Of a DNA stretch of 6,410 bases, positions 1 through 6,410 are shown in pieces (position 1 is the stretch's first letter; each line of letters begins with the position of its first letter). A model generated the notes under the pieces. It did no database searches and had not been told where the DNA came from. It saw only the letters and a list, made by a program, of their open reading frames with translations. Location of the stretch: IMG/VR virus record IMGVR_UViG_2671180892_000009, positions 1 through 6,410 of that record. One strand, 5' to 3'. A program made the position numbers and the translations under genes. This DNA is from a virus (lineage: Duplodnaviria > Heunggongvirae > Uroviricota > Caudoviricetes).

Positions 1-582
1 TTACTCTGCAGGTGAAGTCGGCCACTCAATATCAGGTGCAGTTGATGTATCAACACGGTTCAGCAATACCCGATACTTCTTCCAGGCTTCCAGCAACGAG
101 GTTTCTTCCTCCGTTGCAATTTCCAGATCTGCAGCATCCTGAAGCGGCGCAATATGCTCACTGGCTACCTGCATCAGGCTTTTTTTTGTTTCTTCCGCCT
201 CCCGGATCCGGAACAGTTTTTCTGCTTCCGTATCCTTCACCCAGGCTGTGCCGTTCCACTTCTGATATTCCCCTCCCGGCGATAACCAGGTAAAATTTTC
301 CGGTAACGGACCGAGTTCAGAAATAAATAACGCGTCGCCGGAAGCCACGTCATAGACGGTTTTACCCCGATGGTCTTCAACGAGATGCCACGATGCCTCA
401 TCACTGTTGAAAACAGCCACAAAGCCAGCCGGAATATCTGGCGGTGCAATATCGGTACTGTTTGCTGGCAGACCTGTATGAGGCGGAATATATGCGTCAC
501 CTTCACCAATAAATTCATTAGTTCCGGCCAGCAGATTATAAATTTTTATGGTCCGTGGTTGTTCACTCATTCTGAATGCCAT
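1..582 (-). CDS. tfa: Tail fibre assembly protein (lambda Tfa family), 193 aa. The ATG at 580-582 overlaps the stop of the upstream tail-fibre fragment as TAATG; a second in-frame ATG lies at 568-570.
   Basis: Full-length ORF with its stop at 1-3. The translation ([51 protein letters not shown]...) matches the lambda/enterobacterial Tfa family as I remember it. It sits directly downstream of a tail-fibre C-terminal fragment, as in lambda stf-tfa. Confidence 0.85.
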
Positions 583-914
583 TATGCAAGCCTCACAATA
601 TAGTTAAATGCAATGTTTTTGACGGTGTTTTCCGCGTTACCCGCAGCGTTAACGGTGATGGTGTGTCCGTGTGAACCAATACTGAAAGAATGGGCATGAG
701 CACCGATAACAACCGGATGCTGGTGCGCACCAATACCAACTGTATGCGCATGTGCACCGGCACTCACGGCTGTACCGGACAATGAGTGACTGTGGCTGCC
801 CTGACTGTCCGTTTTCGATAAATAAGCAATACCCTGTGTGTTGGTTCCTTTAACTGTGGATAAACTTCCTGTATCAATGCTTAAATCAATGACAAGGTCA
901 GCAATCTGGTCCAA
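582..914 (-). pseudogene. Deletion-fusion remnant: about 16 residues resembling the tape-measure (gpH) N-terminus joined in frame to a His-box side-tail-fibre C-terminal tip domain, 110 codons. The only possible start is TTG at 912-914.
   Basis: The N-terminus [16 protein letters not shown] resembles lambda gpH MAEPVGDLVVDLSLD. The rest (SHSHS, GAHAHT, GAHQHP, GAHAHS, GSHGHT ... [11 protein letters not shown]) has the repeated GxHxH boxes typical of T4 gp37 / lambda Stf fibre tips. There is no internal Met; an in-frame stop lies two codons upstream of the TTG; a strong Shine-Dalgarno (GGGAGGAA) precedes the TTG. The open frame is intact, so it may still be translated. Confidence 0.65.
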
Positions 915-1227
915 ATCTCATTCCTCCCGATATACCTTCCCCCAGATGCATCAGCTCTTCATCCGTGCGTTCAGGGATCACCCTGTCATCCGTAACCAGA
1001 CTGAAATCATCCGCCGGAATACGTTCACCGGACACCATCTGAACCATCAGCGACTTCAGTGTGGAAATCTGTGCATCCAGCCAGATATCCCCGAAACTCT
1101 GCTTCCGGAAGAAATCCCCCCATTCGCCCAGTTCTGACGCTGACATTTCTGATAACATCCGCCGCCAGTCTGCCCGCCGGAACTCACGGGCAAGCTGCAT
1201 CACAAACTGCATCTCCCGCGTCAGGAC
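898..1227 (-). CDS. gpT-like frame, the -1 frame relative to G, expected to be expressed only as a G-T fusion by programmed -1 frameshifting. The frame is open from 1251; the first ATG is at 1210-1212.
   Basis: Position and frame match the lambda G/T arrangement: the frame is -1 relative to G, it opens 9 codons before the G stop, and it ends just inside the start of the gpH-like ORF. The protein sequence was not matched to lambda gpT from memory, so the call rests on synteny. Confidence 0.55.
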
Positions 1228-1610
1228 TTTTCCGGTGTCAGGGGAACCTGTTCACCGTTCTGAACATCACCGGTGGAGACCGGCATACCACTCAGGGATA
1301 AAACCAGACTGCCCCCGTCGCCAAGCGCGTCATAAGACCAGGTGTTTTTTACATCCTCATTCAGCGCATCCACATCCTGTGACGGGTCCGTATTCCACAT
1401 TGACCGGGAAACCAGCCAGGCATTGATATCCATCCCCATACGCAGAAATTCAATCTGACGATCCGCCACCGGCATGGCATCATCCAGGGCGTCAAACTCA
1501 GCTGTCCGTTTCTGGACAAACGCCAGATACTCCACCCGCTGAAGTCCGGATAATTCTGTCAGTACCACAGACTGATTACCGTAGTTAAATGTGTCCTGTT
1601 TCAGAAACAT
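1221..1610 (-). CDS. G: Tail assembly chaperone gpG-like, 129 aa from the ATG at 1608-1610.
   Basis: The N-terminus MFLKQDTFNYGNQSVVLTELSGLQRVEYLA resembles lambda gpG MFLKTESFEHNGVTVTLSELSALQRIEHLA. A strong Shine-Dalgarno (GGAGGGG) lies 4 nt upstream of the ATG. It sits between V and the T frame, as in lambda. Confidence 0.8.
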   Translation of the reverse strand: MFLKQDTFNYGNQSVVLTELSGLQRVEYLAFVQKRTAEFDALDDAMPVADRQIEFLRMGMDINAWLVSRSMWNTDPSQDVDALNEDVKNTWSYDALGDGGSLVLSLSGMPVSTGDVQNGEQVPLTPEKS

Positions 1611-1619
1611 GTCCCCTCC

Positions 1620-1648
1620 GTAAACAAAAAACCCCGGCATACCGGGGT
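1620..1648 (-). terminator. Rho-independent terminator-like hairpin between V and G. On the minus-strand RNA it reads ACCCCGG-UAUG-CCGGGGU followed by UUUUUUGUUU.
   Basis: Seen in sequence: a 7-bp GC-rich stem (plus 1631-1637 and 1642-1648) with a 4-nt loop, immediately followed on the minus strand by a U-tract. It lies in the 56-nt V-G intergenic region just upstream of the G ribosome-binding site. Confidence 0.55.
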
Positions 1649-1666
1649 AAAAAACAGACTGCCAGG

Positions 1667-2407
1667 TTAATCACCATTAACGGTAATACCGGCCACAGCA
1701 ACCTGCGCACCACCCGCAGTCATCCCCACAATCGAGGTGCTGCCCGCTTTCACACCTTTCACCGTGGCCACCATGCCACTCAGCGTAACCGTGGCGATAT
1801 CAGGAGATGATGACGCCACGCTCACCGTTTTATCAGAAGCATCTTCCGGTACTGTGCTGAATGTCAGCGTCGTCGTTGCCCCCACTCTGACACTGGCGGA
1901 AACCGGCATTACTGTCAGCCCGGTCACCCCCACAATTTCAGTCCCCTCCTCAGCCAGATACGGACGCCCCACACCGCTGATTTTAACCGTACGGGTCATC
2001 ACATCTTTTGACGTAATGGTTTTACCCAGCGAACTCAGCCAGCCGCGGAACACATCAACGGTACCGTTAGGGTATTTAATGCGGAATGCACGAACTTCAC
2101 CGGAATCAAACAACTGAATCAGTTTTTTCTGTCCGCTGTCACCCGGACGCCAGGCCAGCGTCGCGGATGTATCACCAACAGATTTTTGCCCCTGAGTTGT
2201 CGTTTTCCAGTCAGCATTTTCATCATCGAGATAATCGTCATCTTCCGCATCTGCAGTCATTTCCCCCGGCTGCAGATCCTTCACCATCGCGAGGCGCAGC
2301 CAGTCCGTATCTGACAAAGGATTCGCAAATGCGTCGCCCTTGCCGGTATACATCCAGAACGTCGTCCCCGCCCCTTTCATTTTTTCAAGTGGATTCGGTG
2401 TCGTCAT
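1667..2407 (-). CDS. V: Major tail (tube) protein gpV-like, 246 aa, with a C-terminal Ig-like (Big_2-type) domain. Start at the ATG at 2405-2407 rather than the upstream start given in the ORF track.
   Basis: MTTPNPLEKMKGAGTTFWMYTGKGDAFANPLSDTDW... aligns along its length with lambda gpV ([36 protein letters not shown]...). Same length as lambda gpV (246 aa). Shine-Dalgarno AAGGGGTGGG upstream of the ATG. Confidence 0.9.
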   Translation of the reverse strand: MTTPNPLEKMKGAGTTFWMYTGKGDAFANPLSDTDWLRLAMVKDLQPGEMTADAEDDDYLDDENADWKTTTQGQKSVGDTSATLAWRPGDSGQKKLIQLFDSGEVRAFRIKYPNGTVDVFRGWLSSLGKTITSKDVMTRTVKISGVGRPYLAEEGTEIVGVTGLTVMPVSASVRVGATTTLTFSTVPEDASDKTVSVASSSPDIATVTLSGMVATVKGVKAGSTSIVGMTAGGAQVAVAGITVNGD

Positions 2408-2417
2408 TTCCCACCCC

Positions 2418-3026
2418 TTAATTTGTATATGTGATTTGATACGTGATTTCCGCCATCGCCCATGTTGCCATATCGTTATCACGCTGATAGTTAAATCCCC
2501 GTGGGATCATGGTATCGATAAGGCCGTAAAGCGCCGGAATATCCTCCAGTGCCGGGTAAATAATGTTGTCCATCCACGTATCCAGATCAGAATCCGGTGC
2601 CTGTGCGCGGATAAAGACGGCGACATGCAGAACTGCCAGCCAGTCATCCTCATCCGTCATTTTTCCGGTGTACTGTGCATCACTCAGCCACACCGCCACG
2701 GCAGGCAGCTCCTGCGCATCAATAAAGGCAGGAAGGCCGTCAAACAGGACGGTCTTCTCCCCGCACGTCGTTTTCAGGCGCGACAATACGGCCTGACGAA
2801 TTTGTGTGTGTCGGTTCATCGGGTCAGATATAACCTCAGTTGGTGTTTCAGGGCATACACCCAGCGCACTTTCCAGCTCTTCAATATACTGACGCAGTTC
2901 ACCAATTGTCGCCCGCGAATACTGAACCTGACGCCCGTCCTTGCTGACGGAAACCACAGCACGTCCGATCATCAGTTCATGTAACGCCCGGCGGGCATCG
3001 CATAGCATTTCATGCGTATAAATCAT
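2418..3026 (-). CDS. In-frame fusion ORF: gpW-like head-tail joining protein (about residues 1-57), a roughly 13-residue junction, then a complete gpU-like tail terminator starting at an internal Met at 2817-2819. Start at the ATG at 3024-3026; a GTG at 3027-3029 is also in frame.
   Basis: N-terminal part: ARRALHELMIGRAVVSVSKDGRQVQYSRATIGELRQYIEELE versus lambda gpW [42 protein letters not shown]. C-terminal part: MNRHTQIRQAVL...FDGLPAFIDAQELPAVAVWLSDAQYTG...IPALYGLIDTM...ITYQITY versus lambda gpU MKHTELRAAVL...FDGRPAVFDEADFPAVAVYLTGAEYTG...IPALSDLITSM...LTYVITY. Shine-Dalgarno GGAGGA 7 nt upstream of the ATG. Confidence 0.8.
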   Translation of the reverse strand: MIYTHEMLCDARRALHELMIGRAVVSVSKDGRQVQYSRATIGELRQYIEELESALGVCPETPTEVISDPMNRHTQIRQAVLSRLKTTCGEKTVLFDGLPAFIDAQELPAVAVWLSDAQYTGKMTDEDDWLAVLHVAVFIRAQAPDSDLDTWMDNIIYPALEDIPALYGLIDTMIPRGFNYQRDNDMATWAMAEITYQITYTN

Positions 3027-3029
3027 CAC

Positions 3030-4946
3030 TTATCCTCCACTCAGAGCAGCCGCGATTTCTTCAATAGTCATTTCATCGTCGTCCTGTTCATCTCTTCTGG
3101 CGCGGGCCAGTGCATCCAGATCCAGTTGCCACCGCTGAACGGAAATGCGCAGCGCTGCATAGGCATACACCAGACAGTCCAGAGCTTCATTACGCCGTTT
3201 TCTGGCATCCCACTGGAGTTTCACCCGCCCGTTCACAACTTTTTCAACCAGCTCTTCTGCCACGAGTTGTTTAGCTTCAACATCAGAAAAAATGTCCGGG
3301 TTATCCGGAAAACGGAAGGTATACGGTGCGACTTCACTGGCAGATACCACCGGCAGGGCAAAACGCGCATACAGCATTTCCTTGACGGTATCGGAACCCA
3401 CCTCACACAAAAACACCCCACGCTGGTTTCGCTTTTTTGGCATGGTGATCACCGGCTTGCCGTACACCGACGCCCCTTTGATGGGGAGCACAAAAAAAGT
3501 GCCGTGTTTTCTGGATCGCTGATACACAATGTCCTGGTCAATACCACCGGTATCCCAGCAGACGCGGGAAATGGAAATTTCAGTGCCATCTGCATGACGG
3601 TATTTTTTCCGGATCACGGCATCAACGCGTTTAAGGGTGTCCTCATCTTCCGGTCTCCCCATGATGATCTGCTTGTCAATCAGAAAAGCTTCTTCGCCAG
3701 GAGCCCAGCCCCAGACATAAATCTCATAACGGTTTTTCTGAGAGTCGATCCCTGCGGTCAGGTAAACCACCCGCAGGGGAACCTGCGCATCATAGTGGCA
3801 GACTTTTTCCAGCAATAACTCAAAGCTCAGTTTTTCTGCCACAGCCTCTTCATAAGGCTCCCCCAGCGTGGTGTTAATGAACGTCTTGACGCCATTCGGA
3901 TCCTTCAGTGCATCAAGCCAGTCATAAACAATCTGTACCCAGGTGGTGAACGGGCTGTATGCCGTCCAGATGTGGTACGAGATTGAGCGCGGTGGCGGGA
4001 TTTCCTCATCACCGGCGCTGTAAAATGTCAGACCGTCACGCGTCCACATCCCGGTATTGTCACAAATCCACCGCCCGTCGGTCTGGTCAAGTTCCGACTG
4101 ACGGATCGCGCAGCCATTATGTTCACACAGGTAATACACCGTCTCCGGCTTGCCCTTCTCCCATTTCAGGCCAAAGGTTGTCGCATCATCGCCAAACTTC
4201 AGATACTGGGCTTCACCACAATGAGGGCATGGCACATAAAACCGCATAAAATGTGCAGATTCGTTCGCGGCTTTTTCAATCTGGCAAAAACCTTTAATTT
4301 TGGGCGTTGAGCCGCGTATGGATTTAGGCCATACCGAACCTTCGATACGCTTATCGCCAAGCAGAGTTGGTGAACCTTCTTTTTCCACATCCGGTTCAAA
4401 CGAGGAGAGTTCGTCATAGCAGACCACATCCACAGATTTTTCACGGTAGTTTTTGGCAGCAGCTCCGCCCAGACACCAGAATCCCACACCGGAGGAGAAA
4501 CGTTTCAGGGTAAGCGTGTTGTCCCGATGTTTTCTGCCAAACCACGGAGCCAGCTCCAGTAATACAGGAACGTCTCTTATCGTTGGTTCGACATGGGATT
4601 TCATAAAATCTTCTGCCGCAGAATCTGTCGGCTGAAAAAGCAGGCTGTTACGGGATTTGTGTTCAATAAAATAAGCCTCCACCCCCAACAGCATTTTGGT
4701 GTAACCAACACGCGCCGATTTAATCAGATTAACGGTGCGGATCCGGTCATTCCCCATGCTGTTCATGATGGCAACCTGAAACGGCAGTGTTTCCCATTGC
4801 CCGGGAGTATATGAAGACTCTTTTGGCAGATAATAATGCTGATCAGCCCACTGAACTGTCGTCAGTGGTACCGGAATATTGAGAGATACAAGCCCTGTTG
4901 CTATCGCACCGGCTGCATTAGCTGCCTTCTGTGCGTCTGAAATCAT
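3030..4946 (-). CDS. A: Terminase large subunit gpA-like, about 638 aa. Start at the ATG at 4944-4946; a TTG at 4947-4949 is also in frame.
   Basis: Collinear similarity to lambda gpA over the whole length, for example [88 protein letters not shown] and [19 protein letters not shown]. Near-identical size to lambda gpA (641 aa). No internal stops. Confidence 0.95.
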
Positions 4947-5466
4947 CAATCCACCCGCCTACGTTCTCACCAGCTTTAGCTGCAACGTTGGAGGCTTTTG
5001 CGATTTCAGTTTTCACCACATCAAGGTGTGACGGTGAAATATCCGGATATTTACGCTGTAATGTCAGCGGCACACGTACAAGTATCCCCGAAATCTCCTG
5101 TGCCACACGTTGCAGAATGAAGGTAAACAATTCCGTTTCCAGTACCAGCCCTTCTTCGCGGGCATTTTTCAGTTCCTGTGCATCAGCCTGTGCTTTTGTG
5201 AGTCGGTAGCGCTCATAGTCAATGGTGCCGGGTTGTAAATCTGATTCCGCAGCCGCACGCAAATCCTCGGTCTCTTTGCGGAGTTTTTCGTTTTCAATAT
5301 CGGCTTCGCGCTGCGCATACCACTGAATTGCCATGGCGGTATCAAATACAGATTCAACCCCCTTACTACCACCAGAGACACAAGAGAGCCCCTGAGACTG
5401 CCAGCGTTCAATCGTTCGTGGATCCACGTTGAAAATTTCCGCGAGCTTCTTTTTATTAACCTTCAT
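4918..5466 (-). CDS. nu1: Terminase small subunit Nu1-like, 182 aa, with an N-terminal HTH DNA-binding domain. Start at the ATG at 5464-5466; the ORF track starts 6 codons upstream at 5484. The 3' end overlaps the start of A.
   Basis: [26 protein letters not shown]...[57 protein letters not shown] closely parallels lambda Nu1 (MEVNKKQLADIFGASIRTIQNWQEQG...[56 protein letters not shown]). Confidence 0.9.
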
Positions 5467-5490
5467 AAAACATTTCCATATCAAATGCAG

Positions 5491-5690
5491 GGTCCGACAT
5501 GGAAGTGCTCAAAAACGTCTTTTTCGGGCACTTTCATGTCGGACCTTTTACGGATGTGATTGATGAAAAAACAATGAGTTATACACGAGAAGTACCGACA
5601 CGCTTTTTCCCGAAAAATTTTCATAAATAGCGAAAATCCGCGCCGCTGCCGCCCCGTGGCAGACCACCCCACCGGAAGGACCCGTACAAA
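5491..5690 (-). other. Lambda-type cos site on the minus strand: cosQ-like element (about 5668-5686), cosN with a candidate 12-nt cohesive end GGGCGGCAGCGG (5643-5654), and cosB with candidate Nu1-binding repeats (18-bp inverted repeat arms at 5491-5508 and 5528-5545).
   Basis: The minus-strand sequence ACGGGTCCTTCCGGTG...GCCACG GGGCGGCAGCGG CGCGGATTTTCGCTATTTATGAAAATTTTTCGG aligns with the lambda right end / cos / left end as I remember it (ACGGGTCCTTTCCGGTG...GGTTACG GGGCGGCGACCT CGCGGGTTTTCGCTATTTATGAAAATTTTCCGG). The distance from cosN to the Nu1 start is about 180 bp, as in lambda. Confidence 0.75.
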
Positions 5691-5828
5691 TAGAGTTATT
5701 ATTAATTACATTTACAGTAGGAATGATGTACATCATTGAAACACCATTCAGTCATATACCGACAGCATTCGGTGTTGCACTTCATAACTCTGCGACTACG
5801 GTTATAAAAGCATTGGCTACTTTTGCCA

Positions 5829-5870
5829 CCGGCAAATCTTCAATGGATTTCCCCTGCCGGTTTTTTATTT
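5829..5870 (+). terminator. Weak terminator-like hairpin on the plus strand (CCGGCA...TGCCGG with an internal loop) followed by TTTTTTATTTT.
   Basis: Seen in sequence only. The stem is interrupted and the loop is long; no upstream plus-strand gene is evident in the window. Confidence 0.25.
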
Positions 5871-6008
5871 TCATCGATGCATAACATTGCTTTTACATCA
5901 ATAGCAGCTATTGTCAGTAGTATGTTGTATCGATGCATGGGTGGTATTGGCGATCTTCGCCGACCGGTTCTGTGTAGCTCCCTATGACCGGTTTTTTTAT
6001 TTCTAAGA

Positions 6009-6045
6009 TTATAGAAGTCCTTCACTGTATGAAGGACTTCTATAA
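6009..6045. repeat. Perfect 16-bp inverted repeat (TTATAGAAGTCCTTCA / TGAAGGACTTCTATAA) separated by 5 bp. Function unknown: a stable hairpin or a dimeric protein-binding site.
   Basis: Seen directly in sequence: 6009-6024 is the exact reverse complement of 6030-6045. It lies about 75 bp from the IS3 terminus in an AT-rich non-coding stretch. Confidence 0.6.
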
Positions 6046-6119
6046 CGCTTCTTACTTTGTAATTTTCGCACCTTCCGGTAATTCCATAGGTTAAAAAAAC
6101 CTCATAATCTCTGACAATT

Positions 6120-6410
6120 TGATCCTACCCACGTAATATGGACACAGGCCTAAGCGAGGTTCTGGTTTTCAAATTGTTCCGGACTGAGGCCGCCACACCA
6201 ACTGTGCCGCCGCCACCGATTGTAATCACATTCGATATAATTAAACACCGTTGCCCGCATTATTTCCCGGCTGATAAAGTGTTCTCCATGGATACATTCC
6301 ACTTTCAGCGAATGAAAGAAGCTTTCCACGCAGGCATTATCGTAGCAGCAACCTTTTGCGCTCATACTTCCACGCAGATTATGCCGTTTCTGTTGCGCCT
6401 GATAATCTGC
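6120..6410 (-). mobile_element. IS3 (IS3 family) insertion sequence, right-end portion, with the terminal inverted repeat beginning TGATCCTACCCACGTAATATGGACACAGGCC at 6120. The element continues beyond the window edge.
   Basis: The terminus starting with TGATCC matches the IS3 end sequence as I remember it, and the adjacent ORF encodes the C-terminus of the IS3 orfB transposase. Confidence 0.9.
6150..6410 (-). CDS. insF: IS3 transposase orfB (InsF-like), C-terminal 86 residues of the DDE catalytic domain. 5'-partial: the N-terminus lies beyond the window.
   Basis: The frame is open to the window edge. The translation [86 protein letters not shown] matches the IS3 InsF C-terminus with two substitutions relative to the copy I remember (L to Q, K to Q). 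Confidence 0.9.

Follow-up and report, generated by a model that had tools for sequence, protein, structure and literature searches.

How does a lambdoid prophage come to keep its cohesive-end site (cos), an intact terminase and the genes of the tail shaft when its capsid and tail-tip genes are missing? The question is raised by a stretch of 6,410 nucleotides of viral DNA (Caudoviricetes; IMG/VR record IMGVR_UViG_2671180892_000009, positions 1 to 6,410), hereafter referred to as the window, which corresponds at 100% identity to the final 6,410 bases, in reverse complement, of contig LOPH01000003.1 from Escherichia coli GCA_001576105.1. A first-pass annotation made from the sequence alone had described the locus as a minimal lambdoid remnant and had offered either very recent deletion or selection for retained function as explanations, the latter in the form of an element packaged in trans by a helper phage or of a supply of terminase or tail parts to such phages. 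In order to decide between these possibilities we compared the locus with intact prophages at the same chromosomal site. We conclude, with a probability of roughly 0.9, that an ordinary defective prophage was left behind when a small clone of E. coli close to strain N61 recently underwent two illegitimate deletions.

Two deletions separate the window from intact prophages

Genes were called from the list of open reading frames (ORFs) of the window together with a Pfam profile search of each ORF. All late genes, as well as cos, lie on the minus strand in the order cos-Nu1-A-W::U-V-G(-T)-H'::stf'-tfa, and part of an IS3 element is present besides. The gene assignments of the first-pass annotation (Nu1, A, W, U, V, G(-T), stf' and tfa) and their order are each upheld by Pfam, as is cos by alignment; in the case of U, the domain is indeed present at full length, with the qualification that it exists only inside the W::U reading frame. 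The retained genes contain neither frameshifts nor internal stops.

No complete E. coli genome matches the window as a whole; positions 2855..6410, including IS3, match the complete genomes of ARS-C101, VG35A2, N61 and EC11 at 99.8-100%. In N61, an isolate from bovine mastitis milk (NZ_AP028880.1, 2,693,094 to ~2,739,900), and in ARS-C101 (NZ_CP132979.1), a full prophage of ~47 kb lies between potB and potC. Its late genes are ordered Nu1-A-W-B-C-D-E-FI-FII-Z-U-V-G-T-H-M-L-K-I-J-lom-stf-tfa, of which the window is a collinear subset. Past IS3 the prophage continues with bor, lysis genes, Q, replication genes, dicA/dicC-type immunity genes, dicB, exo, xis and int, and it also carries hokD and rem, which together with dicA/dicC/dicB are Qin-type genes. 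The window shares with these two prophages the integration site, the IS3 upstream of cos, 99.9% nucleotide identity over the retained parts and identical Nu1, A, U, V, G, T and Tfa proteins, whereas it differs from them, which have full head and tail-tip gene sets, by the loss of two segments and the presence of two chimeric genes at the resulting junctions. The 9,419-bp chromosomal flank of the window strain is 100% identical to that of N61.

On the tfa side, where tfa is the final prophage gene, the source contig continues into potB, potA, pepT, roxA, phoQ, phoP, purB, hflD and mnmA, and at its other end it breaks inside IS3. The window therefore extends from an assembly break to the boundary between prophage and chromosome, and the region upstream of IS3 is not shown. 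For this reason the term minimal could not be established for the remnant: the parent holds lysis genes, Q and the replication, immunity and int region beyond IS3, and the integrase, excisionase, immunity, replication and lysis genes are seen in the parents, with the deletion-bearing contigs shown ending within or near IS3. IS3 occupies the same position, between the lysis/bor region and the late operon, in four complete genomes. In ARS-C101 the prophage and IS3 are ~99.9% identical to the window although the chromosomal flank is ~1% divergent, and therefore the IS3-bearing prophage has recently moved or recombined between lineages.

The deletions were mapped base by base by comparing the window with the N61 and ARS-C101 prophages. 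Deletion 1 (6,043 bp) brings W codon 57 up to 36 nt before the start of U and takes the last 12 codons of W, all of B, C/Nu3, D, E, FI and FII, and Z save for its ~36 final nt; the crossover lies in a common ATAC within an imperfect 13-nt similarity (2852-2865). Deletion 2 (11,551 bp), with its crossover in a common GTA, connects H codon 14/15 with stf codon ~679 and takes H from codon 15 onwards, M, L, K, I, J, lom and the first ~678 codons of stf, which brings the total removed to 17.6 kb. The absence of the genes from portal to Z and from tape measure to most of stf, predicted from the sequence alone, is thereby verified directly against intact relatives, and as these hold the full gene order, the compact arrangement is a deletion and not a native state. 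The features on which this comparison rests are as follows:

1..582, minus: tfa, tail fibre assembly protein, 193 aa, intact (Pfam Caudo_TAP, E=9e-44)
582..914, minus: H'::stf' chimera, 110 aa (parental H and stf translations, Pfam Phage_fiber repeat, deletion mapping)
871..873: deletion 2 junction, 3-bp microhomology GTA (comparison with N61 and ARS-C101)
1221..1610, minus: G, tail assembly chaperone, 129 aa, intact (Pfam Phage_TAC_2, E=4.7e-38; coordinates as in the N61 annotation)
1667..2407, minus: V, major tail tube protein, 246 aa, intact (Pfam Phage_TTP_12, E=9.3e-68, and C-terminal Big_2)
2418..3026, minus: W::U chimera, 202 aa (Pfam gpW, PF02831, and Phage_tail_U, PF06141; translations and alignment)
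2855..2858: deletion 1 junction, 4-bp microhomology ATAC (comparison with N61 and ARS-C101)
3030..4946, minus: A, large terminase subunit, 638 aa, intact (Pfam GpA_ATPase, PF05876, and GpA_nuclease, PF20454)
4918..5466, minus: Nu1, small terminase subunit, 182 aa, intact (Pfam Phage_Nu1, PF07471, E=2.6e-83)

In the W::U protein, W residues 1-57 are followed by a 12-aa linker and then by U at its full length (133 aa, with its own ATG at 2819), the linker being the 3' end of Z translated out of its own frame and in that of U. In H'::stf', H residues 1-14/15 lead in frame into the ~95 C-terminal residues of Stf. With their short shared sequences ATAC and GTA, both junctions look like products of illegitimate (microhomology) recombination. 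A site-specific or IS3-mediated deletion was considered and rejected, as the end points lie at least 3.3 kb from IS3 and the window is devoid of long repeats that could mediate such an event.

Age and distribution of the deletions

Outside the deletions, over ~6 kb, the window shows six single-nucleotide differences to N61 and five to ARS-C101, and not one amino acid is changed in the retained native proteins relative to either parent. The differences at 2784 and 2786 fall into one codon with the joint effect Leu to Leu, and the sole residue-changing difference, at 2843, is located in the non-native linker of W::U. The DNA of the V stretch is identical to both parents, that of A is identical to N61 and has one synonymous difference to ARS-C101. 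At all variable sites other than 466 and 475 the allele of the window is also present in an intact prophage (N61 or ARS-C101). The changes at 466 and 475, both in tfa, are synonymous and private to the window strain, a sister deletion-bearing assembly (GCA_965259585.1) having the parental alleles. They are only 9 bp apart, a clustering that suggests a short gene-conversion tract from another copy of tfa.

Since alleles are shared everywhere but at these two positions, there is no substitution that could be attributed to the branch of the deletions. Across 15.7 kb, only 3 bases separate the two deletion-bearing assemblies, which are therefore clonal. With no accumulated substitutions, the expected number of inactivating mutations is near zero, so that the intact ORFs need no selection to explain them. 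The explanation by very recent deletion is thus strongly supported by intact parents of 99.9% identity at the same site and with the same IS3, by the identity of the native proteins and by the empty post-deletion branch. A comparison of dN/dS across homologous loci, which had been proposed as a check, is not meaningful with five or six differences to the parents and none on that branch. The premise that terminase genes are often among the first to go agrees with published data, according to which terminase is preferentially lost in incomplete prophages (Khan and Wahl, 2020; PMC7744054); as A is intact here, this argues for a copy that is young rather than special.

The arrangement is also rare. 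Queries spanning the junctions found neither of them in 5,426 complete E. coli genomes, and an exact scan for junction 1 returned no match in metagenome contigs and none in species-representative genomes. In a scan of IMG/VR with the W::U protein, which yielded 368 relatives of U, the W part is covered by none of the best 80 of the 368. Each of the exact chimeric proteins is found on only three contigs, all from E. coli. Besides GCA_001576105.1, both junctions are seen in GCA_965259585.1, in the Logan assembly of SRR3987556 and further samples, and on a 264-kb contig from NCBI. Only a few isolates, all nearly clonal, carry the arrangement. The second explanation originally offered, selection for retained function, finds no support in these few carriers, in the absence from complete genomes or in the accidental look of the junctions.

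The cos site and other features of the window

To locate cos, the window was aligned to the annotated cos of phage 21 (record M81255; the phage 21 record begins at the cohesive end), which yielded the following elements:

5488..5602, minus: cosB, with R1 (5501..5488), R2 (5545..5529, inverted), I1 (region of the integration host factor site) and R3 (5602..5586) (phage 21 alignment; inverted repeats I1 and I2)
5643..5654, minus: cosN, 12-nt cohesive end GGGCGGCAGCGG (phage 21 alignment)
5673..5684, minus: cosQ/R4-like element ACGGGTCCTTCC, upstream of cosN (aligned to the R4 region annotated in M81255)

The inverted repeats of the R boxes were recovered independently by an inverted-repeat search of the window. 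The cosB elements R3-I1-R2-R1 sit directly upstream of Nu1, the start codon of which follows R1. A role of the ACGGGTCCTTCC element as cosQ is plausible from its alignment. The layout cosQ/R4, cosN, I2, R3, I1, R2, R1, gene 1 (Nu1), gene 2 (A) is that of phage 21 (Jouyvirus), whose R3 and R2 boxes are identical to those of the window, whose gp1 is 94% identical to Nu1 end to end and whose gp2 is 82% identical to A over the full length. Phage 21 is the closest cultured phage for the cos-terminase segment, at only ~81% nucleotide identity, whereas for the tail genes the mEp460/HK-type phages are closer (~78%). In contrast to these likenesses, the cohesive end of phage 21, GGGCGGCGACCT, which is also that of lambda, differs from the GGGCGGCAGCGG of the window at 4 of 12 positions. 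The intact N61 prophage carries the same variant GGGCGGCAGCGG, which is therefore a property of the lineage and not damage, and the variant points to a 21-type phage lineage with sticky ends unlike those of lambda.

Three further features complete the feature list:

898..1212, minus: T reading frame, 104 aa as annotated (Pfam Phage_tail_T; N61 annotation)
1227..1233, minus: slippery-like heptamer G GAA AAG at the end of G (read from the sequence)
6120..6410, minus: 3' part of IS3 with transposase C-terminus and terminal inverted repeat (Pfam rve_2/rve_3; IS3 annotated at the same place in N61 and ARS-C101)

By frame arithmetic, the T frame is -1 relative to G and open from the heptamer (1233..1227) onward. 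The heptamer GGAAAAG is one base off the G GGA AAG of lambda and is the presumed site of the conserved G/G-T -1 frameshift. The IS3 fragment, which stops at the contig end, lies outside the late operon, ~470 bp upstream of cosN. Every ORF corresponds to a standard lambda late gene, and no other family was matched on either strand; a PHROGs search of antisense and small ORFs gave only a weak match, to a spurious ORF spanning cos. A tRNA scan and PADLOC found no tRNAs and no defence genes in the window, the latter in agreement with the first-pass annotation.

The only Rfam match, a full-length one to IS009 (RF02111) at 41-239 on the minus strand, scoring 223.7 bits against a gathering score of 117, lies wholly inside the coding sequence of tfa. 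The spacer between cos and IS3 (5691-6119) is AT-rich, measures ~430 bp and holds no gene annotated in N61; its small ORFs have no PHROG match. It contains a perfect 16-nt inverted repeat (6009-6024 / 6030-6045) with a 5-nt loop, as well as two motifs of CCGG followed by a T run (5857-5872 and 5988-6003) that resemble plus-strand terminators.

Explanations for the derivative and comparison with known elements

In the favoured explanation, the window is the left, late-operon arm of a lambdoid prophage that resembles phage 21 and Qin and sits between potB and potC. In a small near-clonal group, two microhomology deletions stripped 17.6 kb, the one from W codon 58 to 36 nt before U costing portal, protease/scaffold, decoration, capsid, FI, FII and Z, and the one from H codon 15 to stf codon ~679 costing the greater part of stf as well as tape measure, M, L, K, I, J and lom. 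That Nu1, A, V, G/T and tfa are intact and the junction ORFs open then reflects deletions that are recent relative to the rate of point mutation, and not selection. With B, C, D, E, FI, FII, Z, H, M, L, K, I and J deleted, the gene set of a functional prophage is incomplete: in the absence of portal, protease/scaffold and capsid genes there can be no proheads, and in the absence of tape measure and tip genes no tail initiators. By established lambda biology, V, G/GT and U alone cannot build a tail. The deletions would represent a neutral or mildly beneficial loss of lytic capacity, and the remaining late genes probably have no selected role. If the early region is kept as in the parent, induction would lead to excision, replication and lysis but produce no virions, and the element would measure ~29 kb, that is ~46.9 kb minus 17.6 kb, where ~46.9 kb is the span between candidate 12-bp repeats in N61 that constitute weak evidence for attachment sites.

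Four points weigh against this explanation. Both junctions are in frame, for which the chance is ~1 in 9. Two open junction ORFs at such odds are unremarkable, and remnants in unrelated E. coli and Shigella contain accidental U chimeras that stem from other, independent deletions (a head-decoration::U fusion directly before stf'-tfa, and FI::U), so that open junction ORFs are commonplace. In one of the unrelated E. coli remnants (GCA_011601165.1, JAAOWJ010000013.1, 8001-10287), a Phage_cement_2::U chimera is followed by a truncated fibre gene and tfa, and the remnant adjoins an EcoRII-type restriction-modification pair. All point differences within the retained native genes are silent, which superficially resembles purifying selection; the silent changes, however, sit on the branches of the intact, functional prophages or are allele exchanges, and none falls on the branch after the deletions. 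In the window strain the early region is not seen. Finally, two contigs encode a variant W::U protein of 202 aa, P0009 (PPZ19068.1, PPZ55278.1), whose junction is that of the window. At residue 62, in the linker and 15 bp from the junction, it has Thr, which is the allele of N61, and the second half of its U is a different, widespread allele. Either, therefore, the junction has existed for long enough to recombine with another lambdoid prophage, or one and the same deletion has occurred twice.

Among the alternatives, the one in which the locus is a helper-dependent, satellite-like element, having kept its own cos and 21-type terminase so that the proheads and tails of a co-resident lambdoid phage package and transduce it, would be in keeping with the complete cos (cosQ-like element, cosN and cosB), the intact Nu1 and A and the second haplotype P0009. 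The phage-inducible chromosomal islands (PICIs) of E. coli set a precedent for the packaging of cos-bearing islands in trans, by means of a cos site and Rpp, which in cos-type islands such as EcCICFT073 redirects the small terminase of the helper (PMC6739421; PMC6092414). We nevertheless consider this very unlikely, as only a few near-clonal isolates and none of the complete genomes carry the arrangement, the junctions look accidental, no post-deletion divergence exists on which selection could be shown, and neither satellite-specific genes nor a PADLOC or other family match were found. Moreover, keeping V, G, T and tfa would be purposeless, and a length of ~29 kb, provided the rest of the prophage is kept, amounts to ~60-68% of the lambda or phage 21 genome, which falls below the lower limit for stable lambda particles of ~75-78% of the genome. 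Nothing positive speaks for the trans-packaging first proposed. A broader version, in which the derivative is not inert because either the ~29-kb cos and terminase element is packaged by 21-type helpers, as multimers or in aberrant particles, or the chimeras act as assembly poisons against superinfecting lambdoid phages, strikes us as highly improbable; were it true, the recurrence of the W::U junction in P0009 would signify maintenance or repeated origin rather than chance.

A domesticated function, with terminase, tail tube and Tfa complementing other prophages or the chimeras poisoning the assembly of infecting lambdoid phages, is to be regarded as extremely unlikely. The ORFs are open, the native proteins are identical to functional alleles, the chimeras unite interaction surfaces of head-completion and tail-terminator proteins, and tail-fibre genes are generally enriched in incomplete prophages (PMC7744054). 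Conservation, however, does not reach past one clone, the out-of-frame Z in the linker of W::U indicates an accident, and any helper phage carries its own copies of these genes. The proposed supply of terminase or tail parts likewise has nothing positive in its favour. That false joins in a draft genome created the compact order is an idea prompted by the source, a short-read draft contig ending in a repeat (IS3). Microhomologies as short as 3-4 bp would by no means mislead a k-mer assembler, though, and both junctions are common to independent assemblies, which leaves this option with a negligible probability.

Read as two recent illegitimate deletions, the locus offers a dated view of how prophage decay begins in E. 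coli, with large microhomology deletions removing genes of the lytic cycle before decay by point mutation sets in and while the intact parent still circulates in the same clone. Its biological importance is small. For the scanning of genomes it carries the lesson that an intact terminase in a remnant should be compared with near-identical full-length relatives before selection or a satellite is invoked.

Measured against known systems, the element lacks the defining features of PICIs, of capsid-forming PICIs (cf-PICIs) and of tailocins. Cos-type PICIs are not known to carry phage terminase or structural genes, and the only likeness to them is the idea of a chromosomal cos-bearing element that could be packaged into helper capsids; in contrast to them, the window carries the terminase and tail genes native to its phage and is free of PICI genes, and instead of a distinct element conserved across strains we find an arrangement seen in a few clonal isolates and in 0 of the 5,426 complete genomes. 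A preprint names the cf-PICIs as phage satellites. Such islands supply capsid and packaging genes themselves, so that tails are all they borrow. They resemble the window in that the set of morphogenetic genes is partial, whereas in the window the situation is reversed, with capsid and portal deleted and part of the tail shaft (U, V, G and T) present, and the window is a demonstrable deletion derivative. F-type tailocins comprise a complete tail module without head and terminase genes, while the window has lost tape measure and tip genes and kept the terminase. What the window does show are the traits of a lambdoid (lambda/21-type) late operon, namely cos ahead of Nu1, a full-length Nu1 and gpA-type terminase, and the lambda gene order in the parents. 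Among its counterparts are the defective E. coli K-12 prophages Qin and DLP12, which arose by internal deletions and still have a cos-like site, a Nu1 homologue (nohA/nohD) and fragments of stf' and tfa. Both are old remnants that have become fixed in their lineage and carry pseudogenes, and their large terminase is lost or broken; the window differs from them in its intact A and in a deletion that is both young and rare. The element is best regarded as an ordinary defective prophage.

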